Source of the DNA: an uncultured Acidobacteriota bacterium
GTDB lineage: Bacteria; Acidobacteriota; Thermoanaerobaculia; Gp7-AA8
NCBI GenBank assembly: GCA_963758195.1
Contig: CAVWUH010000002.1
Span: forward strand, 715,618-779,617
Direction of reading: 5' to 3'
Length of the DNA: 64,000 bases
Positions within the stretch are counted from its first letter, which is position 1; every line of letters begins with the position of its first letter. Shown one piece after another: positions 3,106-63,116 of the stretch. The position numbers were made by a program, and so were the translations under genes. Below the pieces are notes generated by a model. It saw nothing but the letters and a program-made list of their open reading frames with translations, ran no database searches and was not told the origin of the DNA.

Positions 3106-3195
3106 GAGGAGGGCGGGCTTACAGCCCGCCGATTCTTTTGGGTGGGAGGGGTCCAACCTTCCGCCCAAAACCGGCGGGCTATAAGCCCGCCCTCC
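3106..3195. repeat. Family-3 structured palindromic element (GGAGGGCGGGCTTA...TAAGCCCGCCCTCC), copy 1
   Basis: Outer inverted arms, each containing a GGCGGGCT-loop-AGCCCGCC hairpin. Inner palindrome ttttgggYggg...ccgcccaaaa. About 85% identical to copy 2 over the arms. Confidence 0.8.
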
Positions 3196-3216
3196 TTTAC
3201 GGCTCGCTCGTGCCGG

Positions 3217-3971
3217 CTAGAAGAACTCTTTCAGCCTCGCGCGATGCCTTCGGCTCAGCGCGAGCTTCGTTCCGTCGCGAAGCAGCACGACGAAATCGTC
3301 GCCGACTCCGCGATGGATCTCTTTCACGCGGCGCAGATTCACGATCGTGCTGCGATGGATCCGCAGGAACTCGCGTGCATCGAGACGGCGCTCCACTTCC
3401 CCGATCGACTGGCGCAGGAGATAGGTCACACCTTTCACGTAGAGCCGCACGTACTTCCCTTCCGCGCCGATCCAATCGACGTCGCGCACGTCGACGAAAA
3501 CGATCTTGCCTTTCGCCTGAACGACAAACTGCGCCAGCGACCGGCTGCGGCGCCGTCCAGTCGCTCCAACGCATCGAGCAAACGCATGCGCACCGCGGCG
3601 TCGGTCTCCGTCTGGCGGTCGCGGCGCACGCGCTCGATCGTCCGATCGAAGCGCGCCCGATCGAAAGGCTTCAGCAGATAGTCGACCGCTTCGACATCGA
3701 ATGCCTCCACCGCGTACTCCGCGTGAGCGGTGACGAACACGATCCGCGGCAATTCCTGGCGCGGCACGCGGCGCACGACTTCGAATCCGTCCATGCGCGG
3801 CATGCGGATGTCGAGGAAGACGAGATCCGGCTCGAGCTCCCGAATCGCATCCACCGCTTCCGCCCCGTTCGCGCACTCGCCCACCACCTCGAGATCGGCA
3901 TGTGCCTCGGCGAAGGCACGCACCTTCTGCCGCGACAAGCGTTCGTCATCGACGATGAGCAGCCGGATCAT
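3217..3971 (-). CDS. LytTR-family two-component response regulator, carrying a single frameshift
   Basis: A REC domain (LLIVDDE...DLVFLDIRMP) lies in the frame 3435..3971. A LytTR DNA-binding domain (IVFVDVRDVDWIGAEGKYVRLY...IHRSTIVNL) lies in the frame 3217..about 3560. The two join cleanly if one indel near 3540-3560 is corrected. Confidence 0.8.
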
Positions 3972-5158
3972 CGCAGCGGCACGTCGACCTCGACGATCAC
4001 GCCTCCACCCTCGCGCTCCGCCAGCTTGAAATCGAAGGCCTCGCCATACAGATCGCGCAGACGGGCGAGCGTGTTGCCGAGGCCGATGCGCACGACTCGA
4101 TCCGGGCCACCGGCGAGTCCGGCGCCATCGTCAGCGACGGACAAGCGCAGGCGGTCCCCGCTCACCGCGGCGCGAATCACGATCGTGCCTCCCTCGGCAC
4201 GCGGGGCGACGCCGTGATGGATGGCGTTCTCGACCAGCGGCTGGAGCACGAGATTGGGCACCAGCGCATCCTTGGCCCGCGGCTCGATCTCGTATGCGAC
4301 GCGCAACCGGTCCTCGAGCCGGATCTGTTCGATCTCGAGATAACGGCGCACGAACTCCAGCTCGCGCGACAGCGGCACGAGCTGCTCGGCTTCGCTGTCG
4401 ATGGTCATGCGCAGAAACTCCGCGAGCCGTGTGAGCATCGCGTCGGCGCTGTCGCGATCGCTGTACATCAGTGACGAAATCGAGTTGAGCGTGTTGAACA
4501 AAAAGTGCGGCCGCAACTGCATCTTCAACGCCGCCAGCCTCGCCTCGGACAATCGCACTTCGAGTTGCGACGCCTGCAGCTCGCGATCGCGGTATTTCGC
4601 GTAATAGAGAAACAGGTGATGGCCAAGGAGGATCACCCAGTACGTCGGCACCAGAGAATGGAAGTTCGCCGAGAACGAATAGGCGACGACGAGTGGATAC
4701 GGATCGTTGCGCAGGCGAAGGACGAACGTGAGAAAGACCTCCGTCGCAATGAGGGAGACCGCGGTCACGGCGAGGCTGGCCACGATATGAACCAGCGCCG
4801 CGCGCAGCCGGCGCCGCGGTTCGAGCAGCGGAAACCGCGTTCCCAGCCAGACGATGACCGGCGTGAACAGCCCGTACGTGTAGTAGTACGGCAGATTGAC
4901 GGCCATGGCCCGCGGCCAGGTGATCATCCCTCGCAACGCCGGATTGAAATAGGCCTGCGTGGTGAAAAAAAGCCCGACGACCGTCGATCCGATGAAGACC
5001 AGCAGCGCGGACCGCACGCGTCGACCGAGCACGTCCGCATGATAGCCCGCACGTTTCGCACCCGAGCCGCCGCTCGTGACGCCATGGACGCCGCTCGTGA
5101 CATTGGCAGGGATGCAGCTACTCGAAGGAATGACCCGGCGTCGCAGCGGCATTCTCAT
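3968..5158 (-). CDS. LytS/YehU-type sensor histidine kinase
   Basis: Multi-transmembrane N-terminus, the His_kinase (PF06580) motif LRPHFLFNTLNSI, and a HATPase_c region (NAIHHG...DDGAG). It overlaps the downstream response regulator by 4 nt. Confidence 0.85.
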   Translation of the reverse strand: MRMPLRRRVIPSSSCIPANVTSGVHGVTSGGSGAKRAGYHADVLGRRVRSALLVFIGSTVVGLFFTTQAYFNPALRGMITWPRAMAVNLPYYYTYGLFTPVIVWLGTRFPLLEPRRRLRAALVHIVASLAVTAVSLIATEVFLTFVLRLRNDPYPLVVAYSFSANFHSLVPTYWVILLGHHLFLYYAKYRDRELQASQLEVRLSEARLAALKMQLRPHFLFNTLNSISSLMYSDRDSADAMLTRLAEFLRMTIDSEAEQLVPLSRELEFVRRYLEIEQIRLEDRLRVAYEIEPRAKDALVPNLVLQPLVENAIHHGVAPRAEGGTIVIRAAVSGDRLRLSVADDGAGLAGGPDRVVRIGLGNTLARLRDLYGEAFDFKLAEREGGGVIVEVDVPLR

Positions 5159-6658: not shown

Positions 6659-6886
6659 GCGGTTGCTGGTTGCTGGTTGTCTGTGGAGCATCGCTCTCGC
6701 GACATCGCCGTGGACACGAGGAGGGCGGGCTTAATTAGCCCGCCGGTTCTGGGCGGGGGACGGAGGATGGACCAGGGACGGACGGCACGGGCGCGGGACG
6801 AGCCCCCGCCCAAAAGAATCGGCGGGCTATAAGCCCACCCTCCGGAATCTACGCGGGACCCACAGATAACCAGGAACCAGCAACAC
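6659..6886. repeat. Heptamer-repeat hairpin H2 whose loop contains the family-3 element
   Basis: Arms ggttgctggttgctggttgtctgtgg (6659-6686) and ccacagataaccaggaaccagcaacacc (6860-6886) are complementary. About 170 bp, including repeat 6718-6843, lies between them. Confidence 0.7.
6718..6843. repeat. Family-3 structured palindromic element, copy 2, nested inside heptamer hairpin H2
   Basis: Same arms as copy 1 with a longer central part. It lies between the two complementary arms of H2 (6659-6686 and 6860-6886). Confidence 0.8.
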
Positions 6887-9568: not shown

Positions 9569-9686
9569 GAGTTGGCGGTTGGCAGTTGGCGGTTGGCAGT
9601 GGAAGACCCACCGCGATGTCGCCAACCTGGGCCGCCAACCCGGTGTGCTCGCTCCCGCCAACCGCCAACCGCCAACTGCCAACTCC
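9569..9686. repeat. Heptamer-repeat hairpin H3 (gttggcg/gttggca units)
   Basis: gagttggcggttggcagttggcggttggcag ... ccgccaaccgccaaccgccaactgccaactcc, with a ~60-nt loop. Confidence 0.7.
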
Positions 9687-9698
9687 CCGGAGGCATTC

Positions 9699-13358: not shown

Positions 13359-13439
13359 GAGCGAGTCGCCGAGTCTACGAGTCGCCGAGTTGACAAGGGA
13401 GCCGCGGCTTCTCGCCGACTGGACGACTCGGCGACTCGA

Positions 13440-14814
13440 CTACTCCCCCAGTCCATACTTCTCCATCCTCCGATACAACGCCGCGCGCGAAATCCCCAGC
13501 GCCTCGGCGACGCGGGAGATGTTGCCTTCGTAGTGCTGCATGCACTTCACGATCATGCGCTTCTCCATCTCGTCGAGGGTGATCGTCCCAGCGTCGGGAA
13601 GAGCGACGTTGCGATGGTCGCCGCCGCCGGACGAGGCGTCGCGGACGGCGAAGAAATCGTCGACGTCGAGCTCGCGGCCGCCGCGGATCAGCACCGCGCG
13701 CTCGATGGTCTGGCGGAGCTGGCGGATGTTGCCCGGCCAGTTCTGCGACTTGAGCCATTCCATCGCCCGCGGCGAGATCGATTGCACGTCGGTGCGGTAG
13801 ACCTCGTTCGCGAGTCGCAGGAAATGATTCGCGAGTCGCGGCACATCGCCGCGGCGATCGCGCAGCGGTGGAAGATGGATGTTGATGAGGTTCAAGCGAT
13901 AGAGCAGGTCCTCGCGGAACTCGCCGCGCTGCACGAGCTCGTGCAGCGGACGATTCGTCGCCGCGATGACGCGCAGATCGACGGTGCGCGGGCGACTCGA
14001 GCCGAGCACTTCAAACGTCCGGTCCTGCAGCACGCGCAGCAGCTTCACCTGCGACGAGCCGTCGAGCTCGCCGATCTCATCGAGAAAAATCGATCCGCCG
14101 TCCGCGGTCTCGAATCGCCCGCGCCGCGTTTCGCGCGCGTCGGTGAACGCGCCGCGGACGTGGCCGAACATTTCGCTCTCGAACAGCGTCGACGAAATGC
14201 CGCCGAGGTTCACTTTCACGAACGGACCGCCGCGGCGCCGGCTGTTGCGATGCACGGCTTCGGCGATCAGCTCCTTGCCCGTGCCGCTCTCGCCGGTGAT
14301 CAGCACCGACGCTTCGGTCGGCGCGACGCGGCCGATCATCTCCAGGATGCGGATGCATCTTCGCGTCGCTGCCGATGATGTTCGAGAAGTCCCACTGCTC
14401 GTCGAGCTCCGCGCGCGTCGGATCTTTCTCCGCGACGCGCACGTCGGCGAGATTGAGCGCGGTCTCGACCGACTGCAGCACCGTCGCGTTGACCCACGGC
14501 TTGGTGATGAAGTCGGCCGCGCCGCGTTTCATCCCTTCGACGGCGAGCTGAATCGATCCCCACGCCGTCATCAGAATCACCGGCATCGCCGGTTCCTCGG
14601 CGTGAATGCGCTCGATGAGATCGAGCCCTTCCTCGCCGCCGGTCTGGCGGCTGAAGTTCATGTCCTGAATCACCAGCCGCGGCTTCGCGCGCCGCATCTC
14701 CGCCAGCGCCTCCATCGGCGTGTGCGCCGACACCGTCGCATAGCCGTGCTGCTTGAGCAGCAGCGCGAGCGATGCCGTGATGGAGGTGTCGTCGTCGACG
14801 ATCAGAATGGACAT
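13440..14814 (-). CDS. sigma-54-dependent Fis-family (NtrC-type) response regulator, carrying a single frameshift
   Basis: REC domain (ILIVDDD...LVIQDMNF). AAA+ sigma-54 activator domain (GESGTGKE, the GAFTGA-like motif GHVRGAFTDA, RVIAATN). C-terminal Fis helix-turn-helix. Deleting one extra C in 'gcatccgcatcc' near 14340 restores the frame (IIGSDAKMHRILEMIGRVAPT). Confidence 0.85.
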
Positions 14815-18150: not shown

Positions 18151-18266
18151 AGATCGCAGATCGCAGATCGCAGATCGCGGATCGCAGGAGAAACAAACCA
18201 CGAAGGTCGCACGTGCAGTGGCAGCCTTCGGTCGTCGCTGCGTTCTGCGACCTGCGTTCTGCGATC
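18151..18266. repeat. Heptamer arrays H7 ((agatcgc)5 and (tgcgttc)2 plus gcgatct), within the operon between the MFP and ATPase genes
   Basis: agatcgcagatcgcagatcgcagatcgcggatcgc ... tgcgttctgcgacctgcgttctgcgatct. GATC recurs every 7 nt. Confidence 0.6.
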
Positions 18267-19508
18267 TCATTTCAGTCGTACCTTCTTCACCGCATCGAAC
18301 TCCGTCATGTCCGAGATCACCAGCTCGTCGCCTTCCTTCACGCCGTTCTCGATCTCGATGGCATCCTCGCTGCCGAGACCGAAGCGGATGGGGATGCGCA
18401 CCGCGTCGTCGCCGCGGATCACGAAGGCGTGATCGGTGCTCGTGCGTCCCAGCGCGCCGCGCCGCGCCATCAGCACATTCGCCCTGCGGCCGGTCACGAC
18501 GGCGACGTCGACGCGCAGGTTGTTGCGCAGCAGCGGATGCGACGGCTGATCGAGCGTGATGGAAAAACGCACGACGCCATCGACGATGCGCGGATCGACG
18601 CTGTCGATCACACCGCCGATGGTCGCGTTGTCGAGCTTCACCTGGGCGCGCATCCCCGCGGAAAGCCGCGCCGCATGGATGTCGGAGATCGAAGCATCGA
18701 CGCGATACGCCGACAGATCAGCGATGCGCGCCAGGATGTCGCCGCGGCGAATCGTCGCGCCGACCTCGCTGACGATCGACGTCAGCACGCCGTCGCGATC
18801 GGCGCGGAGCATGGCCAGCTCGAGCTGCCGCTTCGACTCATCGCGATCGCGGCGCGCCGTGCTGACGTCCGCCTGCGACGCAGCGAGCTGCATATCGCGC
18901 GAGCGCAACGCCCGCGTCAACGCTTCCTGCAGCTGGCGCAGCTCGATGTCGCTCTTCTTCGCCGCCGCGCCCGCGGCCAGCGCGTCCTGTTCGGCGATGA
19001 GTCCATCGGCGCGGAGCTTCGTCTTCTGCTCCGCCGTGTAATGCACGATCTGCGCGTCGAGCTTCTTCTGTTCGATCTGCGCCTTGAGATTCTCGATCGT
19101 CTCTTCGAGCCGCAGCCGCAGCTCCGCGCTCGTATTCTCGAGCTGCGTCACACGATCGTCGAGGCGAGCGGCATCGAGACGCGACGCCGAGGTATCGAGC
19201 GTCAGCAGCTCATCACCGATGCGCACGTGATCGCCGGCGCGGCGCCCGACGCGCAACACCCGCGCCTCGACCGGACTCGAAACGACCTGCTCGATGAGCG
19301 GCACCACCGAACCGTTGGCCTGCACCGTCGCCTCGACGGCCCCACGCTCGACGCGCGCCGTCTGAATCGCATCGCGCTGCATCGAAGGCCGCAGCCACTC
19401 GACCGTCGACGCCAGAAAAAACGCCGCCGCCGCCAGCGCGACAACAATCACGACCACGCGCCGCAAGACAACCCGCCGCCTGACTTCCGGAGTGATCTCG
19501 ACATCCAT
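18267..19508 (-). CDS. HlyD/MacA-family periplasmic adaptor (membrane fusion protein)
   Basis: N-terminal transmembrane anchor, long coiled-coil region (LENTSAELRLRLEETIENLKAQIEQKKLD...), and beta-barrel/lipoyl motifs. It is the first gene of the ABC efflux operon. Confidence 0.85.
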   Translation of the reverse strand: MDVEITPEVRRRVVLRRVVVIVVALAAAAFFLASTVEWLRPSMQRDAIQTARVERGAVEATVQANGSVVPLIEQVVSSPVEARVLRVGRRAGDHVRIGDELLTLDTSASRLDAARLDDRVTQLENTSAELRLRLEETIENLKAQIEQKKLDAQIVHYTAEQKTKLRADGLIAEQDALAAGAAAKKSDIELRQLQEALTRALRSRDMQLAASQADVSTARRDRDESKRQLELAMLRADRDGVLTSIVSEVGATIRRGDILARIADLSAYRVDASISDIHAARLSAGMRAQVKLDNATIGGVIDSVDPRIVDGVVRFSITLDQPSHPLLRNNLRVDVAVVTGRRANVLMARRGALGRTSTDHAFVIRGDDAVRIPIRFGLGSEDAIEIENGVKEGDELVISDMTEFDAVKKVRLK

Positions 19509-20283: not shown

Positions 20284-20332
20284 GGGATGGGCATTGTAGT
20301 GTCGGCGCGACTTGCGCACGCTGCAATCTCCT

Positions 20333-20434
20333 GTCATCCCGAGCGTCGAGCGAGGGACCTGGGCGGGCGGGTGGCAGAAGGAGCGTGCCTCGTGCCGCTC
20401 GCCACCCAGGTCCCTCGCTACGCTCGGGATGACA
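20333..20434. repeat. Family-4 ~100-bp palindrome (TGTCATCCCGAGCGTCGAGCGAGGGACCTGGG...CCCAGGTCCCTCGCTNCGCTCGGGATGACA), copy 1
   Basis: Perfect long inverted arms with a variable centre. Three copies in the window. Confidence 0.85.
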
Positions 20435-21380
20435 TGCGTGTATTGATACGCCGAAGTTGCCGCGCGCTGAATCCCGCGCGTTGCGCGACGGCCTCCATCG
20501 TCAGTCCAGGATCGTGCATCAGCGTGCGCGCCAGCTCCGCGCGGACGCGCGTCGAGAACTGGTGCACGGAGATCCCCGTCGCCGCGCGGAACGTTCGCGT
20601 GAGGCTGCGCGCGCTCATGCCCGCGAGCTCCGCGAGCTCGTCGAGCGTGGAACGCGAACGGGGGTTCTGCACGATGAAATCCTGCACGCGATGCACGCCC
20701 GGATGAATGTGCGTGCGGTAATCGAGATACACGCTGCTCTGTTTCTGCGCGCCATCCCGCCGCAGGTACACCACCATCTCCCGCGCCACCTCGGCGGCGA
20801 CGATCGGCCCGTCGGCCTGCTCGATGAACGCCAGCGCCATGTCGATGCCCGAGGCAATGCCCGCGCTCGTCGTGAGCTCGCCGTCGCTGACATAGAGACG
20901 ATCCTCGAGCACCTTCGCCCGCGGAAACCTCCGCGCCAGCTCCGCCGTGCGCGACCAATGCGTCGTACAACGCCGCCCATCGAGCAGTCCCGCTTCGCCG
21001 ACGATGAATGCACCGGTACAAACCGACGCGATGTGCGCGCCCGCCCGCGCCGCATCCGCCAACCACCGCGTGATCGCCCGATCGACCTTCTGCGTCGCCG
21101 CGTACGGCATGCCCGGCACGATCACGATGGGACCAGTTTGCTGTTCGCAGTTCGCAGTTCGCAGGAGAACCCCCGCCCCAGGAGCCGGCGACGCCGTGTC
21201 GTTCCTGCCAGCTGCGAGCTGCGAGCCGCGAGCTATTTCCGGCAGCCGGTCGAGATCGGCCAGCACGATCCCCTGATGCGAGTGCACGCGATCGCGGTTC
21301 GAGCAGACGCGGATCCGGTAGCGGCCTTTCGCTTCCGAGAAGGCCTGCAACGGCCCGGCGAGGTCGAGGATCTCGACCTC
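20418..21380 (-). CDS. GlxA-family transcriptional regulator (DJ-1/PfpI domain plus AraC helix-turn-helix) carrying an in-frame ~99-nt repeat insertion
   Basis: DJ-1/PfpI motifs (ILDLAGPLQAF, IASVCTGAFIVGEAGLLDGRRCTTHW) and a C-terminal AraC helix-turn-helix (LDELAELAGMSARSLTRTFRAATGISVHQF). Hairpin H8 (21141-21233) is translated in frame as RGSQLAAGRNDTASPAPGAGVLLRTANCEQQTG. The start codon is uncertain and probably non-ATG. Confidence 0.7.
   Translation of the reverse strand, partial: EVEILDLAGPLQAFSEAKGRYRIRVCSNRDRVHSHQGIVLADLDRLPEIARGSQLAAGRNDTASPAPGAGVLLRTANCEQQTGPIVIVPGMPYAATQKVDRAITRWLADAARAGAHIASVCTGAFIVGEAGLLDGRRCTTHWSRTAELARRFPRAKVLEDRLYVSDGELTTSAGIASGIDMALAFIEQADGPIVAAEVAREMVVYLRRDGAQKQSSVYLDYRTHIHPGVHRVQDFIVQNPRSRSTLDELAELAGMSARSLTRTFRAATGISVHQFSTRVRAELARTLMHDPGLTMEAVAQRAGFSARQLRRINTRMSSRA
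21141..21233. repeat. Heptamer-repeat hairpin H8 ((gttcgca)3 ... (ctgcgag)3) inserted in frame in the GlxA-family CDS
   Basis: ctgttcgcagttcgcagttcgcagg ... ccagctgcgagctgcgagccgcgagc. It interrupts the DJ-1 domain between two conserved blocks. Confidence 0.7.
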
Positions 21381-21397
21381 CGGCAGCACGACGAAAA

Positions 21398-21961
21398 TTA
21401 CTTCGCGGATACGAGCATCTCCTGCGTCACTTCGCTCACGGTCATGATCCGCGCGAACCGCCCCCGCAGCGCGGCCTCGGTGCGTTCGACGATCGCATCC
21501 GTCGCCAGCACCCCTGTCGGCGTCACGATCGGAAACGTCGCCGTCGCCTCGGTGACGAAGTCGACATCGTAGCCGAGGTCCGCCGCGACACGTGTCGTCG
21601 TCTCGCAGCACTGCTCCGTGGATATCCCGCAAACCACGACCCTGTGCACTCCGATCGCATCGAGCCGCTGCTGCAGATCCGTGCTCGTGAACGCGTTACG
21701 CGTATTCTTGAGCACAACCGGATCGCTCTCCCGCCGGTCGAGAAATTCCATCAACCGCACCTCCGGGTCCCCCGGCCGAAACCCCGGATCCGAATCGTTG
21801 TGAAGGATGAAGAAGATGGGCAGCGACGCCTCGCGAAACGCGGCGACGAGATCCGTCACGTTCCTCTCGAAGCCCGGGTTATTGCGCCGCGCCCAACGCG
21901 CCGGATCGATCTTGAACGAATCCTGAATGTCGACGACGAGCAAAGCTGTGTTGTTGTTCAT
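21398..21961 (-). CDS. isochorismatase-family cysteine hydrolase
   Basis: ALLVVDIQDSF...VVVCGISTEQCCETT carries the catalytic Asp/Lys/Cys pattern of isochorismatase-like hydrolases. Confidence 0.8.
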   Translation of the reverse strand: MNNNTALLVVDIQDSFKIDPARWARRNNPGFERNVTDLVAAFREASLPIFFILHNDSDPGFRPGDPEVRLMEFLDRRESDPVVLKNTRNAFTSTDLQQRLDAIGVHRVVVCGISTEQCCETTTRVAADLGYDVDFVTEATATFPIVTPTGVLATDAIVERTEAALRGRFARIMTVSEVTQEMLVSAK

Positions 21962-22116
21962 GACGCGCAATGTAAAGCGCGCGTCGCACGCGGGAGGGAC
22001 GAAGAGCGGTCAAAACGGGCCAACGACAGCGATCTTCTTCACCGGCGGCAAAGCCCCGCTCTCGCCTTTGTTCGCAGCTCGGCGAAGCACATCCAACTTC
22101 GCCAAGAGGCGTCGCG

Positions 22117-22359
22117 TTAGCCGGCTCGCTTCTTACGTGTCGCCTTCAGGCCGACCGTCTTTCCCGAGATTCTGACCAATGTCCTCAGCGCTTCGTTGAC
22201 AGCTTGGGAATCCTGAAAGAACTCGGCCATATCGGGCGACAGCACGATGACGTTCGTTCCCGCGGCGTAACGAGCCGCATACTTGCCGCGAACACCGTTC
22301 GAGAAATCGTAGTCGGGAACCGGCTGCCGCTTCTTCGTGCTACCGCTTTTTGTGGTCAT
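22117..22359 (-). CDS. brnA: BrnA-like antitoxin
   Basis: 81 aa immediately downstream of brnT, overlapping its 3' end. DYDFSNGVRGKYA motif typical of BrnA. Confidence 0.55.
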   Translation of the reverse strand: MTTKSGSTKKRQPVPDYDFSNGVRGKYAARYAAGTNVIVLSPDMAEFFQDSQAVNEALRTLVRISGKTVGLKATRKKRAG

Positions 22360-22618
22360 ATTGCTTCCGCTGTCGGGCATTCGCATGCCATGCACTGATG
22401 ATCCGAATATACGCACCCCGTTCCGTATGGGGCACGACGAGGAGATTACCGCGACTCGATTTGCCAAGTGTGACCCACCGCCGCTCACCTACCGAGTGTT
22501 CATCATCCGGAATGGTAATCTGATCCCAATCCGCAAATACGGTGAGTGCCTCCTCGAATGAAACACCATGGTTCCGGACGTTCTCCTCCGCCTTCCATGG
22601 ATCCCACTCAAACTTCAC
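22340..22618 (-). CDS. brnT: BrnT-family ribonuclease toxin (DUF497)
   Basis: KFEWDPWKAEENVRNHGVSFEEALTVF matches the BrnT/DUF497 signature. Confidence 0.7.
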   Translation of the reverse strand: MKFEWDPWKAEENVRNHGVSFEEALTVFADWDQITIPDDEHSVGERRWVTLGKSSRGNLLVVPHTERGAYIRIISAWHANARQRKQYDHKKR

Positions 22619-22753
22619 GCGGAGATTGTACCTGCTCGAAAATCAGCACCTCGAGTTACGCCAACTGACCGGACGAGCGCGACACCGCAAGTCCAGGCCC
22701 ATATGCTGCGAACGACCGATCGAGGCGAAGGGCCTCATCGCGAAGGACCGCCA

Positions 22754-23251
22754 TTACTTGGTCTGCCAGCCCTCATCGGCCGTCGGCCCATAGATCGACG
22801 GAATCGGCTGGTCATTGAGACGCAGATAGACCGAGAGCTGTCCGCGATGGTGAGCCAGATGCGAAAACGTGTCCGTGATCATGATGTAGCGCGGCTTTTC
22901 GTCGACGACAGCACCGTTGACCTTGAGCTGCCAGGGCTTCATCAGATGCTCATCGCTCGTGCCGGACAAAGCGCGACGCGCATCGGCCACTGACTTGTCG
23001 AAGAGCGCCAGCCGTTCGGCTCCTGTGGACGCCGAGGCTCCAGCACCCTTGCCGAGATCGAGATCGTCCTGCTCGATCATCAACGCGATCCAACCGAACA
23101 TACCCGCGACGAGCGCCGAGAGGTACCCCATCGCCATCGACTTCGGGTGTGGCTTCCAATCCCCCAGACCTTCCGGCACGCGCTCGATGACCCTGTGCGT
23201 CGTCGGAGTCTCGCGTTCGAGTTGCGCCAGCAGCATGTCCGTAATCTTCAT
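22754..23251 (-). CDS. DinB-superfamily protein (damage-inducible, metal-dependent hydrolase-like)
   Basis: Four-helix-bundle DinB pattern with HLAHHRGQLSVYLR near the C-terminus. Confidence 0.7.
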   Translation of the reverse strand: MKITDMLLAQLERETPTTHRVIERVPEGLGDWKPHPKSMAMGYLSALVAGMFGWIALMIEQDDLDLGKGAGASASTGAERLALFDKSVADARRALSGTSDEHLMKPWQLKVNGAVVDEKPRYIMITDTFSHLAHHRGQLSVYLRLNDQPIPSIYGPTADEGWQTK

Positions 23252-33020: not shown

Positions 33021-34146
33021 ATGGCCGAGTTGTCGACGACGTTTACCGGACTTAAATTCGCAAATCCTTACCTCCTCGCCTCGGCACCGCCGACGGAGTC
33101 GGATTCGAACATCATCCGCGCCTTCGAAGCCGGTTGGGGCGGAGTCGTGACCAAGACCATCGGCCTGCATCCGGTCATGAACGTCAAGGGCCCGAAGACG
33201 AAGTTCCTGCGCGCCGAAAACAACGGCACGCAGCTGTCGATGAACAAGCGCCCCGACACGACGCTCATGGCGTCGTGGAACTGGGAGCTGATCTCCGACA
33301 AGCCGCTCGACTGGTGGATCGGCAAGCTCGCGCGCATCAAGAAGCAGTTCCCCGATCGCGTGCTCGTCGCCTCGATCATGGCCGGTTCCGGCAACGACAA
33401 GGAGCTGCACAACTGGCAGACGCTGGCCAAGGCATGTCAGGACGAGGGAGCGGACGCGCTGGAGCTCAACTTCTCCTGCCCGCACATGGATCGCGTCGAC
33501 ATGGGCTCGAACGTCGGCAAGGACAAGGTGCTCTGCTCCGTCGTCACGCAGGCGGTAAAGGAAGTCGCGACCATCCCGGTCTGGGTGAAGCTCACGCCGG
33601 CGACGTCCAACATCGTCGAAGAAGCCGCAGGCGACGTTCCTCGGCGGCGCCGACGCCGTCTGTTCGTCGAACACCTTGCCGTCGCTCCCCGTGATCGATC
33701 CGCAAACGCTCGACTTCGAGATGAACGTCGAGGGCTTCGTCTCCCCCGGCGGCCTCGGCGGACCGGCGATTCTCCCGCTCTCGATGGCCAAGATGGCGCA
33801 GATGACGAAAGCGTTTCCCGATCGCGCTTTCTCCGGCATCGGCGGCGTCTCGACCTTCGAGCACGCGCTCAACTACTTCCTCCTCGGCTGCGGCACGGTG
33901 CAGGTCTGCACCGCGGCGATGCTCGATCACGCCATCGGCCCGAACGTGATCAAGACCCTTCTCGCCGGCATGACCGAGTTCATGGATCAACGCGGCTATG
34001 CCTCGCTCGAAGATTTCCGCGGCATCCGCCGCGATCGCGTCGTCCCGCATTCGCAGATCAAACGCCCCGACACGTCCGACTACCGCGGCGGCTACGCCGA
34101 GGATCAGGAAGGCTACGCAGCGCCGGTCACGCCGGTCACGGCGTAA
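33021..34146 (+). CDS. dihydroorotate-dehydrogenase-family flavoprotein (PydA/PreA-like dihydropyrimidine dehydrogenase catalytic subunit), carrying a single frameshift
   Basis: DHOD/DPD motifs FANPYLLASAPPT, GWGGVVTKT, LELNFSCPH, PVWVKLTP, then (second frame from about 33650) SGIGGVSTFEHALNYFLLGCGTVQVCTA. Good RBS (aggagacgccATG). No C-terminal 4Fe-4S domain. Confidence 0.75.
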
Positions 34147-34153
34147 TTTTGTT

Positions 34154-34260
34154 GGAGCGCAGGCTTCCAGCCTGCCGGTCCGCCGGCATCTTGCCGGCAG
34201 TCCTCGCGAGTGCGTACCGGCTGGAAGCCGGTGGACCGGCAGGCTGGAAGCCTGCGCTCC
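34154..34260. repeat. Family-5 palindrome (GGAGCGCAGGCTTCCAGCCTGCCGGTCCGCCGGC...GCCGGCTGGAAGCCGGTGGACCGGCAGGCTGGAAGCCTGCGCTCC)
   Basis: Full inverted-repeat copy 3' of the PydA-like gene. A half copy lies at 63054-63097 and a short related hairpin at 19628-19672. Confidence 0.8.
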
Positions 34261-34267
34261 GACGGAA

Positions 34268-35143
34268 CTACCGCGCGATGGCTTCGATCTCGAGCAACAG
34301 ATCCGCGCGGCAGATGTCTGCTTCGAGATAGAGATTCGCGGCGAACACGCTCTCCAGCTTGCGCGCGATCAACTCGTAATCAGCAGCGCGTCGCACGTAC
34401 GTCTTCGCGGAGACCACGTTCGCGAGCGAGCGTCCCGTCTGCGCCAGCACGGCGTCGATGTTCCGCAGCGTCTCCTCGAGTTGCGTGTCGACATCGCCGG
34501 CATGCACGGTCAGATGACCGACAACGCTCGACGTGCCCGACACGAACACCGTCCCATTCCACACCGTCGCGCGTGAGAACGATGGGCTCTTGGGACCGTA
34601 GCGCGCGGGGTAATCGTAGGCCGCAACCTGTCGCGGATTCTCGACCTGCAGCCCGGGCTCGCGCGCGGCGAGGTAGTACGCAACGAAACCGCGTCCCGGC
34701 ACGCCGACCGCGCTCGCCGCGGGAAGATCGACGTCGTGGTGATAGCCCGCTTCGACGAACGCGTCGTGACGTCCGGCGCAGAAGAGCTGATAGCGCTCGC
34801 GCCCTTCGTCCAGCTCATTGATGCCGCCGAGGTAGTTCCAGATGCGAAGAAAGTACGGGTATCCCGACTCGCGCGTCTCGCGGATCATGCGCACGTAGGC
34901 CTCGCGCGCGATCTGTTCGATCGGCAGAGATCCGTCGATCGTCACCGAGCCGAACGTCACCCCGTCGGGCAGCGGCCACTCTTCGATCAGAGAAGTTCCG
35001 CCGAGCTGGCGCACCGGTACGTGCAAAGCGTCGCGCAGCGCGTCGCCATAGGCGATCGCCACCGGCGCGCCATTGCGCGACGACACATAGCGCGGCGCCA
35101 GCCCACTTGCCGCCGAGGGTACCCACCGATCCTGGACCCGCAC
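34268..35143 (-). CDS. RidA/YjgF-domain protein with N-terminal extension (chorismatase FkbO/Hyg5-like)
   Basis: C-terminal ~110 aa has the RidA-type fold (TVWNGTVFVSGTSS...AKTYV). The ~180-aa N-terminal domain matches the two-domain chorismatase-like layout. Confidence 0.5.
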   Translation of the reverse strand: MRVQDRWVPSAASGLAPRYVSSRNGAPVAIAYGDALRDALHVPVRQLGGTSLIEEWPLPDGVTFGSVTIDGSLPIEQIAREAYVRMIRETRESGYPYFLRIWNYLGGINELDEGRERYQLFCAGRHDAFVEAGYHHDVDLPAASAVGVPGRGFVAYYLAAREPGLQVENPRQVAAYDYPARYGPKSPSFSRATVWNGTVFVSGTSSVVGHLTVHAGDVDTQLEETLRNIDAVLAQTGRSLANVVSAKTYVRRAADYELIARKLESVFAANLYLEADICRADLLLEIEAIAR

Positions 35144-38421: not shown

Positions 38422-39651
38422 ATGAAGCCCACGCTGATCGCGCTCGCCTTCGGCTTTGCGTTGGGGATTCCCGCGTCGTTCCTTTCGTCTTCGCACGTTG
38501 CCACGTACGTCGATGGCGCGGCAGCGATCGGCGGGTGGTGGGCCGCGGGGCTGCGGTTGATCGTCATGCCGCTCATCGTCTGCCTTCTGATCACCGGTCT
38601 CGCCGGTTCGAGCAGTCGTCTCGTAGGGCGTCTCGGCGCGATCTGCTTTGCGGTGTTCGTGGCGATGCTCGTCGTCGGCACGCTTCTCGGGTTGGTGCTG
38701 ACGCCGGCGCTCGTCCGCCTGCTGGGCGTTCCGCGCGGGGTGCTCGCCGTCGCGATGAGCTCTTCGCAGGCAAGCAATGCGGCGCCCGGCGGCGCGGCGA
38801 TCGTGCAGGCGATGCTGAACAATCAACTGCTGATGGTCATCGCCGTCACCGTGCTCTTCGCGCTGGCGATGACGCGCATCGCCGAGGAGAAGCGGAAGAC
38901 GCTCGTGGCCTTCTTTGATGCGGCGATGGCGACGATCGTCGTGATCCTCTCGTGGATCCTGCGGCTGATGCCTGCCGCGGTGTTCTTCCTCGCCTTCGCC
39001 ACTGCGGTGCGCAGCGGATTGTCGGCGGCGCGCGCGCTCATCTCGCTCGTGGCCATTGCCATTCTTCTGCTGGTGCTGTTCACGATCGCGATGTACGCCG
39101 TCGCCTCGATCTTCGGCCGCGTGTCCCTACGGCAATTCGCATCCGCGGCGCTGCCGGTGCAGATCGTCGCCGGCGGAACACGCTCGTCGCTGGCCTCGCT
39201 CCCCGCGCTGCTCGACGCCGGCGATCGCCTGGGACTGCCGGCGAGCGTGAACGCGTTCGTCATGCCGCTCTGCGTGTCGATCTTCAAGGTCAATCGCACG
39301 ATCACCGGCATGGTCTACCTGTTTTTCCTCGCGCACGTCTGCGGCGTCGAGCTCAACGTGCCGACGATCGTCGCCTACGCGGCGACCGGAATCATCCTCA
39401 GCTTCGCTTCGCCGGGAACGCCGGGCGCCGGCGTGCTCACTGCCACCGCGCCGTTGCTCGCAGCGGGCATTCCGATGGCGGCGATCGTGATGACGCAGGC
39501 GATGGACGATCTGCCCGATGTGTTCAAGACGATCGCCAACGTGACCGCGGACCTCGCCGCCGGCGCGGTCGTGGCCCGTTTCGCCGGCGCGGAAGAGATG
39601 ACTGGCGCGGACGACGCGACGATCCTCGTCGCCGAGCCGGACGCGGCCTGA
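38422..39651 (+). CDS. dicarboxylate/amino acid:cation symporter (DAACS/GltP family)
   Basis: Eight or more transmembrane helices. Motifs SSSQASNAAPGG and the re-entrant hairpin region PGTPGAGVLTATAP typical of DAACS. Confidence 0.8.
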   Translation: MKPTLIALAFGFALGIPASFLSSSHVATYVDGAAAIGGWWAAGLRLIVMPLIVCLLITGLAGSSSRLVGRLGAICFAVFVAMLVVGTLLGLVLTPALVRLLGVPRGVLAVAMSSSQASNAAPGGAAIVQAMLNNQLLMVIAVTVLFALAMTRIAEEKRKTLVAFFDAAMATIVVILSWILRLMPAAVFFLAFATAVRSGLSAARALISLVAIAILLLVLFTIAMYAVASIFGRVSLRQFASAALPVQIVAGGTRSSLASLPALLDAGDRLGLPASVNAFVMPLCVSIFKVNRTITGMVYLFFLAHVCGVELNVPTIVAYAATGIILSFASPGTPGAGVLTATAPLLAAGIPMAAIVMTQAMDDLPDVFKTIANVTADLAAGAVVARFAGAEEMTGADDATILVAEPDAA

Positions 39652-40536
39652 TGCCGATCCGCAAGATCGCCATCCTCCTGCACGAGCGCCATCGCGATGC
39701 GCTGTTGACCGCTTATCGCATCTGGGGACTCGCCGCACACTGGCGCAAGCGCGGCATCACCGTCGAGCCAATCTTGGGCATCGAGCGCGAGATCGACGCC
39801 GATCTGCTGATTCCGCATCTCGATCTCTCGTACATCCCCGACGATTACTGGGCGTTCCTGCAACGACATCCGAACGTCGTCAATCGCCGCGTGCGCGACA
39901 TCCGCAAGATCGCGATCAGCACGAATCTCGTGCAGCTCACCGATTCCTGGCAGGGACCCGTGATCGTGAAGACGAACCTCAACTATCGCGGCGTGATGGA
40001 CGCGCAACTCCTCGGCCCAACACGAACGTTCGCAAAGCGCATCGCCAATCGCATCACGGATCGCCTCGCCCGCCCCTCCTTCATCGAACGGAGATTCCTC
40101 GGCTGGCGCAGCACGCCGCATCGCTATCACATCTTTCGCAGCAAGCACGACGTTCCCCGCCCCGTCTGGACAAACGACGCGCTCGTCGTCGAACGCTTTC
40201 TCCCCGAGCGCCGCGGCAGGCAGTACGTGATGCGCATCTGGGCCTTCTTCGGCGATCGCGGCCAGAGCAAGGTGTTCTACGGCGACGATCCCTGGATCAA
40301 AGGGCAGAACTCCGAGATGCACGTCCTCGCCGATCCCCCTCCGCCCGCCATCGTCGAAGCCCGCCACCGCCTCGGTCTCGACTACGCCAAGATGGACTAC
40401 GTCCTTCACGACGGCGAGGCGGTGCTGATCGACGTCAACGTCACGCAAGGCCTGCGATTGCCGACCGAGCCGTCGATGCTCGAGCGATCGCGGCACATGG
40501 CGGACGGGTTGGCGTACTTCGAACGATCGCGGATCG
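39651..40536 (+). CDS. ATP-grasp-like hypothetical protein; no stop codon before the next gene
   Basis: Starts one nt inside the symporter stop (ctgATGc). Beta-rich motifs (GPVIVKTNLNYRG, YVMRIWAFFGDRG, EAVLIDVNVTQG) resemble an ATP-grasp fold. The reading frame continues through hairpin 40524-40624 into the downstream gene with no stop. Confidence 0.4.
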
Positions 40537-40624
40537 CAGATCGTGGATCGCAAAAGACGCCCCCATCACCGCGCGATGAAGAACATTTGCGCACCTGCGA
40601 TCCGCGATCTACGGTCCGCGATCT
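40524..40624. repeat. Heptamer-repeat hairpin H10 ((gatcgca) units), translated in frame between the ATP-grasp and beta-ureidopropionase genes
   Basis: gatcgcggatcgcagatcgtggatcgca ... tgcgatccgcgatctacggtccgcgatct. No stop codon occurs within or before it. Confidence 0.65.
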
Positions 40625-40671
40625 GAGGGTGGTAAGCTCTCCCGCACTTCAAAATCAGGAGCCAAAATTCA

Positions 40672-41543
40672 TGTCCCGTCTCGTGAAGTGCGGTCTCATT
40701 CAGACGTCTCTTGCGGCCGACGTATCGGAGTCGATCGAAACGATCCGCGATGCCCAGACCGAGCGGACGTTGAAGTACATCGAGCAGGCCGGGCAGGAAG
40801 GCGTGCAGATCCTCTGCCTGCAGGAGATCTTCAACGGCCCCTACTTCTGCGCCGAGCAGAACCCGCGCTGGTACGACGCGGCCGAGAAGATCCCCGACGG
40901 CCCGACCACGAAGCTGATGCAGGAGTACGCGAAGAAGTACAAGATGGTGATCGTCGTGCCGCTCTACGAAGAAGAGGAGACCGGGCGTCTACTACAACAC
41001 CGCCGCGGTCATCGACGCCGACGGCACGTACCTCGGCAAGTACCGCAAGAACCACATCCCGCACATCGCACCCGGCTTCTGGGAGAAGTACTACTTCCGC
41101 CCCGGCAACCTCGGCTATCCGGTCTTCGAGACGCGCGTACGCGAAGGTCGGCGTCTACATCTGCTACGACCGCCACTTCCCCGAGGGCGCGCGCGCGCTC
41201 GGGCTCGAACGGCGCGGAGATCGTCTTCAATCCGTCGGCGACCGTCGCCGGCCTCTCGCGAGTATCTCTGGAAGCTCGAGCAGCCGGCGCACGCCGTCGC
41301 CAACGGCTACTTCGTCGGCGCGATCAACCGCGTCGGCACCGAAGCGCCCTGGAACATCGGCGAGTTCTACGGCCAGAGCTACTTCTCGATCCGCGCGGCA
41401 AGATCCTCGCGATCGGCGAGCGCGACAAGGACGAGCTCGTCGTCGCCGAGCTCGACCTCGACAAGATCCGCGAAGTGCGCAACACGTGGCAGTTCTATCG
41501 CGATCGCCGGCCGGAGACGTACACGGGAATCGTCAAACTGTAG
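40672..41543 (+). pseudogene. beta-ureidopropionase / N-carbamoyl-amino-acid amidohydrolase (nitrilase superfamily), with three or more frameshifts
   Basis: RBS aggagccaaaattcATG. CN-hydrolase motifs in three frames: LCLQEIFNGPYFC (catalytic Glu region), YRKNHIP...KVGVYICYDRHFPE (catalytic Lys and Cys), and GAEIVFNPSA...FYGQSYF...ELDLDKIREVR. Confidence 0.75.
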
Positions 41544-41550
41544 AACGGCA

Positions 41551-41635
41551 GTTGCTGGTTGCTTGTTGCTGGTTGTCGAGGGGCGTCACGCTTCGATGAA
41601 CCACAACAGCAACCAGCAACCAGGAACCAGCAACC
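41551..41635. repeat. Heptamer-repeat hairpin H11 (ttgctgg units)
   Basis: gttgctggttgcttgttgctggttgt ... acaacagcaaccagcaaccaggaaccagcaacc. Lies between the beta-ureidopropionase stop and the DinB-family start. Confidence 0.7.
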
Positions 41636-42190: not shown

Positions 42191-43069
42191 ATGCGCACGC
42201 TCACGCGCGACGACTTCGACGCGCTGCACCTCGCGTTCGTCGAAGCCTTCAGCGACTACGTCGTCAAGCTCGCGCCAACGCGCGAGCAACTCGCGGAGAT
42301 GCTGACGCGCCGCGGCTACGTTCCCGAAGCCTCGGTGGCCGAGGTCGAAGGCGACCGCATCGTTGCCTTCACGCTGAACGGAATCGACGGCACGAGCGCC
42401 TACGACACCGGCACCGGCGTCGTCCCTTCCCATCGCCGCCGCGGTCTCGCCAACGCGATGCTGGCGTTCCTCGAGCCGCTGCTGCGCGAGCGCGGCTGTA
42501 CGGAGTACATCCTCGAAGTGCTCGAAGCCAACGCCGCCGCTCGCGCGCTCTACCTCGGCGCGGGGTTTCAGGAGACGCGCGGGTTGCAGTGCTGGACGTT
42601 CGAGGCTCAAGGGCGCACAGGCTCACAGGCTCACAGCGTTTTTGCCCCGGTGAGCCTCGAAGCCCGTGAGCCTGTGAGCCACTGGTGGAGCGTCACTCCC
42701 TCCTGGCAAAACTCCTCGCCCTCGATCGCCCGCGCCCGCGTTCCGCACGTCACGCTCGGCGACGAGAACTGCTACGCGATCCTCTTCCCATCGAACGGCG
42801 ATCTCGCGCAACTCGCGGTGCGTCCCGAGATGCGCCGGCAGGGAATCGGAACGCGACTCCTTCACGAAGTCGCGACACTCGCCGGCAAACCGCTGCGCAT
42901 CATGAACGTCGACGAGCGCGACGAAGGGATTGCTCGTTTTCTCGATGCCGCCGGCGCGAAGCGGATGGTGCGGCAGATCGAGATGCGTTTTCAGCTCGCA
43001 GCTGGCAGCTCGCAGCTCGCAGCGGAAACCACATCGACTCCCGGTCGACTTCTGCCAGCTGAGAGCTGA
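42191..43069 (+). CDS. tandem-GNAT N-acetyltransferase with in-frame repeat insertions
   Basis: Two acetyl-CoA-binding motifs (HRRRGLANAML; RRQGIGTRLLHEV). Hairpin H12 is translated in the inter-domain linker (GRTGSQAHSVFAPVSLEAREPVSHWW). The C-terminal tail (QLAAGSSQLAAETTSTPGRLLPAES) is a translation of hairpin H13. Confidence 0.65.
   Translation: MRTLTRDDFDALHLAFVEAFSDYVVKLAPTREQLAEMLTRRGYVPEASVAEVEGDRIVAFTLNGIDGTSAYDTGTGVVPSHRRRGLANAMLAFLEPLLRERGCTEYILEVLEANAAARALYLGAGFQETRGLQCWTFEAQGRTGSQAHSVFAPVSLEAREPVSHWWSVTPSWQNSSPSIARARVPHVTLGDENCYAILFPSNGDLAQLAVRPEMRRQGIGTRLLHEVATLAGKPLRIMNVDERDEGIARFLDAAGAKRMVRQIEMRFQLAAGSSQLAAETTSTPGRLLPAES
42616..42680. repeat. Heptamer-repeat hairpin H12 ((caggctcac)2 ... 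(gtgagcct)2) in frame inside the GNAT CDS linker
   Basis: cacaggctcacaggctcacagcgtttttgccccggtgagcctcgaagcccgtgagcctgtgagcc. Confidence 0.65.
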
Positions 43070-43082
43070 GAGCTGAGAGCTA
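42992..43082. repeat. Heptamer-repeat hairpin H13 ((cagctcg)n ... (gagctga)3) forming the GNAT C-terminal tail and stop codon
   Basis: cagctcgcagctggcagctcgcagctcgcagc ... tgccagctgagagctgagagctgagagctaag. Confidence 0.65.
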
Positions 43083-43086
43083 AGCC

Positions 43087-43728
43087 ATGGAAATCAAAAT
43101 CTGCTGCATCAGCAGCCACGATGAAGCGCGCATGGCCATCGACGCCGGCGCGAACATTCTCGGACTCGTTTCGGCGATGCCGAGCGGGCCGGGCGTCATC
43201 GACGAAACGCTCATCGCATCGATCGCCGCCGCTGTCGATGCACAGACCTTTCTGCTCACCTCGCTGCGCGATGCCGATGCAATCGTCGCGCAGCATCGGC
43301 GTTGCGGGACGACCGGCATTCAGATCTGCGACGCCCTTCCGCCCGGAAACTTCCGCGCGTTGCGCGAAGCGTTGCCGGGCGTGCGACTCGTCCAGGTCAT
43401 CCACGTCGTCGGCGAGCAGTCGTACGACGAAGCGATGAACGCGGCGAAGGAGGCCGACGCGTTGCTGCTCGATTCGGGCAATCCCGCGCTGCAGATCAAA
43501 GAGCTCGGCGGCACGGGACGCGTCCACGATTGGACGATCAGCAGACGCATCTGCGCGGACGCCGGAGTGCCGGTCTTTCTTGCCGGAGGTCTCCGTCCGG
43601 AAAACGTTGCCGACGCGCTCGCCATGACCGGCGCGAGCGGTGTCGACATCTGCAGCGGCGTGCGCACCGACGACCGACTCGATCGCGCAAAACTCGATCG
43701 TTTCATCTCTGCGGTTACTGGTTTCTAG
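43087..43728 (+). CDS. trpF: N-(5'-phosphoribosyl)anthranilate isomerase
   Basis: MEIKICCISSHDEARMAIDAGANILGLV, a (beta/alpha)8 fold and C-terminal VFLAGGLRPENV match TrpF. Confidence 0.8.
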   Translation: MEIKICCISSHDEARMAIDAGANILGLVSAMPSGPGVIDETLIASIAAAVDAQTFLLTSLRDADAIVAQHRRCGTTGIQICDALPPGNFRALREALPGVRLVQVIHVVGEQSYDEAMNAAKEADALLLDSGNPALQIKELGGTGRVHDWTISRRICADAGVPVFLAGGLRPENVADALAMTGASGVDICSGVRTDDRLDRAKLDRFISAVTGF

Positions 43729-43798
43729 TTGCTGGTTGTCTGCGGTGACTCGATGTTCAGGAGAGATCCACAGATAACCAGCAACCAGGAACCAGGAA
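43714..43798. repeat. Heptamer-repeat hairpin H14 (ttgctgg type) 3' of trpF
   Basis: gttactggtttctagttgctggttgtctgcggtg ... cacagataaccagcaaccaggaaccaggaacg. Confidence 0.7.
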
Positions 43799-43877
43799 CG
43801 AATCGCAGCCTTGGGCAACCCACGCTGCCGGCCGTGCCGGCCGGCTGGCGGGTTTCCTGCTAGTCGAGTAGACGGTC

Positions 43878-44276: not shown

Positions 44277-44280
44277 AAAA

Positions 44281-60980: not shown

Positions 60981-61095
60981 GTCATCCCGAGCGTAGCGAG
61001 GGACCCGGGTGGGTGGGGGCGCGCAACACGATCTTGAATCACGAGTCGCGTGCCACACACCCACCCAGGTCCCTCGCTCGACGCTCGGGATGACA
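60980..61095. repeat. Family-4 palindrome, copy 3
   Basis: Lies between the treZ start and the glgB end. The arms match copies 1 and 2; the centre diverges. Confidence 0.8.
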
Positions 61096-61097
61096 GG

Positions 61098-63116
<2,019 letters not shown>

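Follow-up and report, generated by a model that had tools for sequence, protein, structure and literature searches.

Genes and hairpin repeats in the window

The 64,000-nucleotide stretch of DNA analysed here (contig CAVWUH010000002.1, positions 715,618 to 779,617; hereafter the window) has a G+C content of 59-68% and carries about 20 hairpins whose arms are built from short tandem units. Four of these, named H8, H10, H12 and H13, lie within or against open reading frames (ORFs), and their consequences for the encoded proteins are the subject of this analysis. H8 (21134-21234) sits in the minus-strand gene of a GlxA-family regulator with a DJ-1/PfpI domain and an AraC-type helix-turn-helix (HTH) domain (20418-21401), in the loop before the strand IVIVPGMPY. 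H12 (42603-42680, plus strand) and H13 (42992-43081, plus strand) belong to a plus-strand gene for a two-domain GNAT acetyltransferase (42191-43069; P0121, 292 aa), where they form the linker between the two domains and the C-terminal tail, respectively. H10 (40525-40623, plus strand) lies between an upstream ORF and the leader of a nitrilase-family gene. Statements on genes and frames rest on alignment to orthologues; gene calls based on G+C content at third codon positions missed many genes, and the corresponding frame plot was noisy.

The hairpin class is defined by its build. An arm is an array of 3-5 units in tandem, the unit being mostly 7 nt long and more rarely 8 or 9 nt, and the loops are variable. 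Where 4.8 occurrences of the unit pattern would be expected in the window, 35 are found. The period is 7 in most window copies and 8 or 9 in H12 and a few others. In an alignment of seven rows, made up of five window copies and an orthologous copy from locus L004 read on both strands, the G, T, G and C of G-N-T-N-G-C-N (a consensus that describes one heptamer subfamily only) were invariant in every heptamer, while the loop sequence was not conserved. Judged by this build, H8, H10, H12 and H13 all belong to a single class of dispersed hairpin repeats, which has a density of approximately one copy per 3 kb in the source genome.

The usual home of most tandem-unit hairpins is a short intergenic spacer, in which they start 0-11 nt past the stop codon. 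At least 11 of the 20 window copies have a coding ORF that terminates either within their first units or in the 0-11 nt ahead of them, and the called genes on four other loci (L002, L004, L005 and L007) show the same placement near gene ends. An intrinsic (Rho-independent) terminator was ruled out as the identity of these hairpins, as they lack a T-tail: a terminator scan reported no tandem-arm hairpin, and none has a T-run behind it. Scanning the whole window against Rfam gave no matches at the gathering score, and for 16 hairpins, folded as RNA from either strand, there was no consistent G-U versus A-C bias by which the transcribed strand could be told. The arm ends of GTTGCTG-type copies, 74 in number, had neither a conserved flank nor a terminal motif, showed no target duplication, and had a stop triplet within 15 nt in only 40 cases.

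H8 in the GlxA-type regulator

Tandem Repeats Finder placed the arms of H8 at 21134-21164 and 21205-21234, on either side of a 40-nt loop. On the plus strand the first array reads CAGTTCG ×4.4 and the second CTGCGAG ×4.3, the two being inverted copies of each other with one mismatch per heptamer. The sense (minus) strand reads GCTCGCR ×4, then, beyond the loop, TGCGAAC ×3 and AGCAAAC, and is free of stops within the ORF 20418-21632. As DNA, the segment folds at -25.4 kcal/mol (z = -3.0), with none of 200 shuffles folding equally well.

The earlier note on this DNA, made from the letters alone, held that H8 adds 31 residues in frame, and alignment with orthologues lacking the insert bears this out (the peptide string quoted there has 33 letters). 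The GlxA loop comprises 38 residues in the window against 7 in most orthologues, a net gain of 31 codons; 105 of 120 orthologues have a loop of 7-8 residues, and an empty site is seen in L124. The encoded protein is identical to a publicly deposited one, and its named relatives are labelled Thermoanaerobaculia (Acidobacteriota) by their sources. The two closest orthologues (89% and 88% identical), found in L002 and L004, have their insert at the very nucleotide position where the window has it. In L004 its arms are GATCGCR ×4 and YGCGATC ×4, forming a perfect 30-bp stem of -80 kcal/mol; in L002 the left arm consists of GCTCGCA/GTTCGCA units and the right arm has decayed; and in L122 a degenerate left arm alone remains, the loop and right arm having been deleted. 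That H8 is a native variable loop was ruled out, since most orthologues have no insert and its DNA belongs to the repeat family.

The reading frame has been kept through all of these changes. The GlxA loop measures 111 nt in the window, 114 nt in L002, 102 nt in L004 and 42 nt in the L122 remnant, and these lengths, together with one of 93 nt, make up the range across insert-bearing genes; every one is divisible by three. The codons flanking H8 gave dN/dS values of 0.031, 0.068 and 0.136, which point to strong purifying selection. The insert peptides themselves (RGSQLAAGRNDT..., RSSQFAARRGEV..., DRGSQIADRRGD...) differ among orthologues that are 88-89% identical elsewhere, and no conserved encoded peptide was found when the inserts of insert-bearing orthologues were compared.

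Structure prediction agreed with the suggestion that the insert falls outside the folded part of the protein. An AlphaFold model built on a 120-sequence alignment, which is the one quoted here (25 sequences gave a pLDDT of 62), had a mean pLDDT of 80, and the domain matches solved DJ-1/PfpI structures with a target-normalised TM-score of about 0.8. Residues 60-87 had a pLDDT below 50 and no secondary structure, between strands and blocks above 90, so that the H8 peptide is predicted to form a disordered surface loop, away from the folded core. Because the frame is kept, dN/dS is low and the model places the insert in an unstructured loop, the GlxA-type gene may be regarded as a working gene with a tolerated, disordered and fast-evolving loop. 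Nor is H8 an assembly artefact, because an independent short-read contig of 2479 bp (L001, assembled from the ERR11596053 reads) is 100% identical to window positions 20410-22888, H8 included.

Other orthologues carry different elements within a few nucleotides of the insertion point of H8. The loop of L123 holds a GTCGGCR heptamer hairpin, that of L205 a perfect GGACAGGCAGGATTGCCTGTCC-type hairpin, which by peptide is also present in five more orthologues, and that of L206 a tandem palindromic 10-mer. At least four hairpin families have entered one and the same loop, which would be either a single permissive site under high insertion flux or a site where a resident hairpin attracts its replacement. 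Comparison of filled sites (window, L004 and L123) with the empty site of L124 showed no duplicated flank, and the blurred boundaries make this weak evidence. In the empty loop of L124 (at about 3150-3170) the sequence is GATGCGAGTGCGATC, similar to two TGCGAKC units from the hairpin that its relatives carry there; a copy formerly present may have left it behind, it may be a seed for in-place growth, or the likeness may be due to chance.

The 5' end of the regulator gene has also changed. In orthologues the ancestral GTG start overlaps the stop of the upstream isochorismatase gene as GTGA; in this genome it reads GTAA (21389-21401, minus strand), so that the isochorismatase stop (TAA) is kept and the regulator's GTG start is lost. 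The public annotation (P0001, 323 aa) starts the gene at a GTG at 21389, four codons downstream of the ancestral one, which would trim the first beta-strand. Beside the isochorismatase-GlxA operon lies a two-gene pair (22117-22618, minus strand), one product of which matches BrnT_toxin; it is probably a BrnT/BrnA toxin-antitoxin module.

H12 and H13 in the two-domain GNAT gene

H12 is built from 8-nt units, with an array of AGGCTCAC (four full copies, ×4.2 in all) facing a complementary array of GTGAGCCT, and lies wholly within the GNAT ORF. The earlier proposal that it is translated within the linker of a two-domain GNAT is upheld, with its limits corrected to 42603-42680. Distant GNAT orthologues have an aperiodic, hairpin-free linker of 23-25 residues, while in about half of the orthologues the linker has 28-42 residues. 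In the DNA of 46 metagenomic orthologues, nearly all linkers of at least 96 nt showed period 8 in both halves. The GNAT domains themselves have a dN/dS of 0.16-0.30.

The linker hairpin is long-lived at this site. It begins at the same conserved GAG codon in 16 orthologues and has four 8-nt units per arm in each, down to approximately 55% identity. The units vary among these 16 linkers (GAGGCTCA, GAGTCGCA/AAGTCTCA, GAGTCGAC, GAGTCGCC, CAGTCTCC and TGGTCTCC), and in 21 of 36 stem columns both sides have changed without loss of pairing, although the stem pairs come from the fold predicted for each individual sequence, a procedure biased towards pairing. Unit type and gene similarity do not go together, in that an orthologue of 67% identity has the unit of the window and one of 81% has not; in the relative L006 the units are 9 nt long.

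H13 (CAGCTCG ×4.6 / AGCTGAG ×3.6) starts at the last GNAT codons and replaces the stop. GNAT orthologues end in ...RQIEMxxxL followed by a stop codon; here H13 encodes a tail of 23 residues, and the gene stops at a TGA (43067-43069) inside the right arm, which is as the earlier note described it. The right-arm units are all CTGAGAG, whereas the complement of the left arm (CAGCTCG) would give CTGCGAG, and a TGA occurs in every frame of the right arm because three CTGAGAG copies follow one another in tandem. Such arm-wide variants, in H13 as in H8 (GCTCGCR facing TGCGAAC), show that homogenisation within an arm outpaces the matching of one arm to the other. In a relative of this protein (P0123, 482 aa) the stop has been lost at the gene junction where H13 lies, and the GNAT ORF continues into trpF as one called protein.

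H10 and the nitrilase-family gene

H10 (GATCGCR ×4 / YGCGATC ×4) follows an ORF (39654-40523, plus strand) and precedes a CN_hydrolase gene of the nitrilase family, beta-ureidopropionase-like, that starts with an ATG at 40671 (40671-41543, plus strand). It had been described as an insertion read in frame from an ATP-grasp ORF into the beta-ureidopropionase ORF. The read-through is real: the ORF 38952-41543 passes through H10 stop-free into the frame of the ATG at 40671, and the next stop in that frame comes only at the end of the downstream gene, with a TGA and a TAA directly behind the hairpin in the other two frames. The remainder of that description did not hold. No Pfam or NCBIfam match was found for the upstream ORF, which leaves the ATP-grasp label without a family behind it, and its homologues align over residues 1-291 and end 2-8 residues later, past the motif GLAxFE, which is where H10 begins. 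In L005 and L006 a different gene is the neighbour, H10 is absent, and the nitrilase-family leader is conserved; this leader (40624-40670; GGTGGTAAGCTCTCCCGCACTTCAAAATCAGGAG) is common to L005 and largely to L006.

On these alignments, H10 is an ordinary post-stop hairpin in an intergenic position, with the stop of the upstream gene missing in this assembly; the CGA at 40521-40523 could be a former TGA. Relative to its intact orthologue in L005, the nitrilase-family gene has four single-base insertions and one deletion, and frame arguments around H10 are unsafe because the downstream gene carries these five single-base indels. A BNR/sortilin-like gene further on (44560-47391) has approximately 24 single-base indels relative to L005, mostly +1 insertions, and the DinB, GNAT, trpF and response-regulator genes have none relative to their orthologues. 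Indels clustered in this way look like a locally unpolished long-read assembly rather than decay.

Distribution in other genomes

An exact search for the pattern GTTGCTGGTTG, a gap of 20-50 nt and CAACCAGCAAC found it in more than 114 places in species-representative genomes. Many of the matches lie in Thermoanaerobaculia, and others in Hymenobacter isolates, Bacteroidales (34% G+C), Phycisphaerales, Gemmatimonadaceae, Desulfobacterales and Alphaproteobacteria. Across 924 kb of loci, taken mostly from this pattern scan, 159 of 167 tandem-arm hairpins had period 7, and most units contained AAC/GTT. Some subfamilies within one genome have inner-stem sequence in common, which suggests copying.

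The arms can also expand. Arms of 7-14 units were seen in L006 (8035-8348), L002 (11834-11993) and L087 (about 3830-3990), and because of such expansions in relatives the arrays can be said to behave like minisatellites. The expanded arrays include 8-mers (GCACAGGC ×10.8 / GTGAGCCT ×13.9, and AGTCGTCT ×6.9 / CGACTCGA ×11.8), and one Pseudomonadota metagenome-assembled genome has more than ten GTTGCTG units.

How hairpins probably come to be carried in working genes

The copies found in genes are quite probably translated, passive passengers, filtered for frame and position, in host genes that go on working. Family membership, insertion relative to orthologues, conservation of frame, purifying selection, a predicted disordered location and compensatory arm changes are all established for them in the comparisons above; actual translation, the manner in which copies spread, and the slippage and template switching that would shape their arms are inferred. 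Given the proximity of the class to gene ends, a continual supply of new copies would lead some to overwrite a stop codon, as at H13 and probably at H10, and a few to land inside genes, as with H8 and H12. A copy inside a gene would survive only where extra unstructured residues are tolerated, that is, in a surface loop, an inter-domain linker or a C-terminus, and only if its length keeps the frame and it carries no stop, after which it would be translated as a passive peptide. The constraint would fall on the frame and on the DNA or RNA hairpin, and not on the amino-acid sequence. The two arms would evolve in concert, a variant unit spreading along one arm, most simply by slippage, and the second arm being matched to it later, either because pairing is selected for or through intra-hairpin template switching (quasipalindrome correction).

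This fits part of what the earlier note had proposed, namely that frame-preserving inserts are borne by proteins as disordered segments. The proposal stands for H8, H12 and H13, where there are insert-free orthologues, lengths that are multiples of three and dN/dS values of 0.03-0.30, with the AlphaFold model in addition for H8; it does not stand for H10. To speak of selection for such insertions was an overstatement; what the data fit is the removal by selection of insertions of all other kinds.

Several observations weigh against the passenger explanation. Neither a transposase, for which no dedicated Y1 scan was made, nor a terminal motif nor a duplicated target came to light, and any account of how the elements spread is conjectural. 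The GNAT linker hairpin keeps its pairing over deep divergence, which a purely passive passenger need not do. Four unrelated hairpin types occupy one GlxA loop, and a filter for permissive sites suffices to account for this only with a high insertion flux. Protein searches detect intact ORFs only, which makes the observation that inserts are always in frame partly a matter of ascertainment. Finally, the GlxA start in this genome reads GTA instead of GTG, so a very recent loss of function is possible.

The second of these points also speaks for a different explanation, in which the in-gene hairpins are functional cis-elements of mRNA or DNA, such as a pause between the GNAT domains, a site for RNase III or other processing, or an internal attenuator. 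The fixed GAG codon and the four 8-nt units per arm in 16 orthologues to about 55% identity, the compensatory changes in 21 of 36 GNAT stem columns, and predicted stems that reach -60 to -80 kcal/mol all count in favour of such an element. However, H8 has eroded among near relatives, with a degenerate right arm in L002 and a deletion in L122 that took the right arm and the loop, the folding energy has no consistent bias to the transcribed strand, the family is found in every kind of context and no Rfam family matches it. Compensatory patterns can arise without selection, by template switching within quasipalindromes. We consider a cis-acting role of the in-gene copies unlikely on balance.

That the host genes are pseudogenes, or on the way to inactivation, and their frames open by accident in GC-rich, stop-poor sequence, is very unlikely. 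Many frames do stay open in DNA of 64% G+C, the GlxA gene of the window is without its ancestral GTG start, and two nearby genes are full of frameshifts. Against this, the dN/dS of the flanks is 0.03-0.30, inserts of different lengths have been kept in frame in several lineages, the catalytic and HTH motifs are all intact, and the host genes of H8, H12 and H13 have no indels relative to orthologues. The inactivation that the earlier note had offered as its second option is unsupported for the GlxA-type and GNAT genes. It is scarcely credible that the segments are native, fast-evolving low-complexity loops or assembly artefacts: the GlxA loop and GNAT linker do vary in length across families and the assembly does have local indel errors, but copies of the family to which this DNA belongs recur along the window and in other genomes, most orthologues have no such segment, and it is carried by an independent short-read contig and by other metagenomes.

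On this evidence, proteins at work in a free-living soil lineage gain length in their loops, linkers and tails from small hairpin repeats, and not from point mutation and domain shuffling alone. The inserts also offer clear-cut natural examples of a single stretch where constraint acts both on a nucleic-acid hairpin and on a reading frame. For annotation, odd low-complexity peptides (e.g., RGSQLAAGR, SQAHS...VSL and QQPATSN) and lost stops are to be expected in such genomes, and would be better treated as repeat-derived than as errors or pseudogenes.

Comparison with known repeat systems

The finding is a known kind of event, carried out by a repeat of unusual build. It adds three things to the known systems: one GlxA loop entered by at least four hairpin families, a GNAT linker hairpin retained in distant orthologues while both arms change in a compensatory way, and hairpins with a shared unit in several phyla. 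What characterises the Rickettsia palindromic elements (RPEs) of Ogata et al. is the presence of palindromic repeats in frame in protein genes (PMC10969869). RPEs are a dispersed palindromic family with many copies in frame in ORFs, compatible with the protein fold, and insert-free orthologues exist (PMC10969869). The window inserts likewise form a dispersed family with insert-free orthologues, conserved frame, purifying selection and a surface position, the last of these being predicted. RPEs differ in being approximately 100-150 bp long with conserved sequence and peptide (PMC10969869), whereas the elements described here have arms of tandem 7-9 nt units, unconserved loops and peptides, a home in the post-stop spacer and a free-living Acidobacteriota host, and the conserved element-encoded peptide of RPEs has no counterpart in them. 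No sequence similarity between the two is expected.

In build, the class resembles the STRR sequences (short tandemly repeated repetitive) of filamentous cyanobacteria, 7-bp tandem hairpins in intergenic spacers such as that between hupS and hupL (PMC2670836). Roles in transcript stability or translational coupling have been proposed for STRRs, their function is unknown, and one is tolerated inside a functional gene, that for RNase P RNA (PMC2670836). Both kinds have 7-bp units in inverted arrays that form a hairpin, in spacers within operons or near the 3' end of the preceding gene. The STRR description does not include in-frame copies in protein genes, unit turnover at orthologous sites or 8-9 nt variants (PMC2670836). 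STRR hosts are heterocyst-forming or filamentous cyanobacteria, whereas the host here is a Thermoanaerobaculia-like member of the Acidobacteriota; the likeness is one of arrangement.

Repetitive extragenic palindromes (REPs) and the derived BIME and REPIN elements, which are mobilised by RAYT transposases (PMC3116915, PMC2817692, PMC3733652), resemble the present class in high copy number, hairpins, short post-stop spacers often inside operons, and subfamilies within a genome. They differ in that REPs are single imperfect palindromes of 20-40 nt with a GTAG or CGTC head, whereas the arms here are tandem arrays, not palindromes, and no conserved head or flank occurs in 74 flanks. No RAYT gene turned up in the 64 kb covered, with no search aimed at one. 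The terminal inverted repeats and target-site duplication of transposable elements of the miniature inverted-repeat type (MITEs) were not found at the filled and empty GlxA sites or at the 74 arm ends, although this is weak evidence with boundaries so blurred.

Heptamer direct repeats (TAACTGA and others) have a patchy, cross-phylum distribution in Beggiatoaceae, Cyanobacteria and Bacteroidetes (PMC4679880). They share with the present class a 7-nt period, an intergenic position, AAC/GTT units, patchy cross-phylum spread and the absence of a known mechanism (PMC4679880). However, the Beggiatoaceae-type arrays are almost all direct, with no inverted partner, and TAACTGA has forward stop codons (PMC4679880), whereas the arrays here come as inverted pairs and many of their units are stop-free on both strands. 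The tandem repeats of Borgs create intrinsically disordered protein regions (PMC9879509), and are alike in being fast-evolving nucleotide repeats in ORFs that are filtered by frame and add disordered segments (PMC9879509). They are direct repeats whose unit length in ORFs is divisible by three (PMC9879509); here the units are 7 or 8 nt long and inverted, and the total length alone is a multiple of three.

Literature searches found no description of heptamer hairpins in Acidobacteria or Hymenobacter. The 14-mer GTTGCTGGTTGCTG and its complement had no occurrence in the literature text searched, and the literature gave no description of in-frame tandem-unit hairpins, of one loop used by several families, or of a coding hairpin kept by compensatory change.

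A bolder proposal is that the tandem-unit hairpins form a cross-phylum, actively maintained, STRR-like class with a 7-8 nt period and GTT/AAC units, which dedicated machinery reads or renews and which stays at orthologous sites over very long spans, even in ORFs, by compensatory and concerted arm change, with the GNAT linker copy a functional nucleic-acid element and no passenger. We regard this as doubtful. If the hairpins were actively maintained, they would tie the long-unexplained heptamer repeats of cyanobacteria, Beggiatoa and Bacteroidetes to a common mechanism.

Further copies and other repeat families in the window

Other members of the class illustrate their placement relative to genes. 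A hairpin of GTTGCTG units (41551-41635) fills the spacer from the stop of the nitrilase-family gene to the DinB start; there is an orthologous copy in L005 and a different hairpin at that site in L006. At 43713-43799, trpF ends within a hairpin, its final four codons and its TAG stop lying in the left arm. Two copies have GATCGCR-type units: one at 44280-44495 (GATCGCR), which starts 6 nt past a stop, and one at 18151-18267 (GATCGCA), which lies between two minus-strand genes and abuts the stop of the upstream one. A copy with GTTGGCR units (9570-9687) begins 9-11 nt past a stop, just ahead of the ribosome-binding site of the next gene; one with GGTTGCT units (1407-1477) begins 4-6 nt past a stop; and at 13362-13445 the outer unit of a hairpin with 8-nt units (CGAGTCGC) contains the stop of the upstream minus-strand gene.

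Other repeat families are also present, some of them nested in these hairpins. A second family (TGTCATCCCGAGCGTCGAGCGAGGGA...) has copies at 44330-44431, 20332-20357 and 61070-61095, the first of which is 102 nt long with perfect 32-nt arms and is nested in the loop of the 44280-44495 hairpin. A third family (GGAGCGCAGGCTTCCAGCCTGCCGG...), with inverted arms of 62 nt, is found at 34136-34278 and 63053-63089, and its peptide signature, AGFQPAG, also occurs in the GNAT linker of some orthologues (P0126 and P0130). A fourth hairpin family (AGGAGGGCGGGCTTA..AGCCCGCC) has copies at 3107-3196 and about 6700-6760; the latter, at about 6.7 kb, is another nested insertion, which splits a GTTGCTG-type hairpin with one arm at 6662 and the other at 6871.

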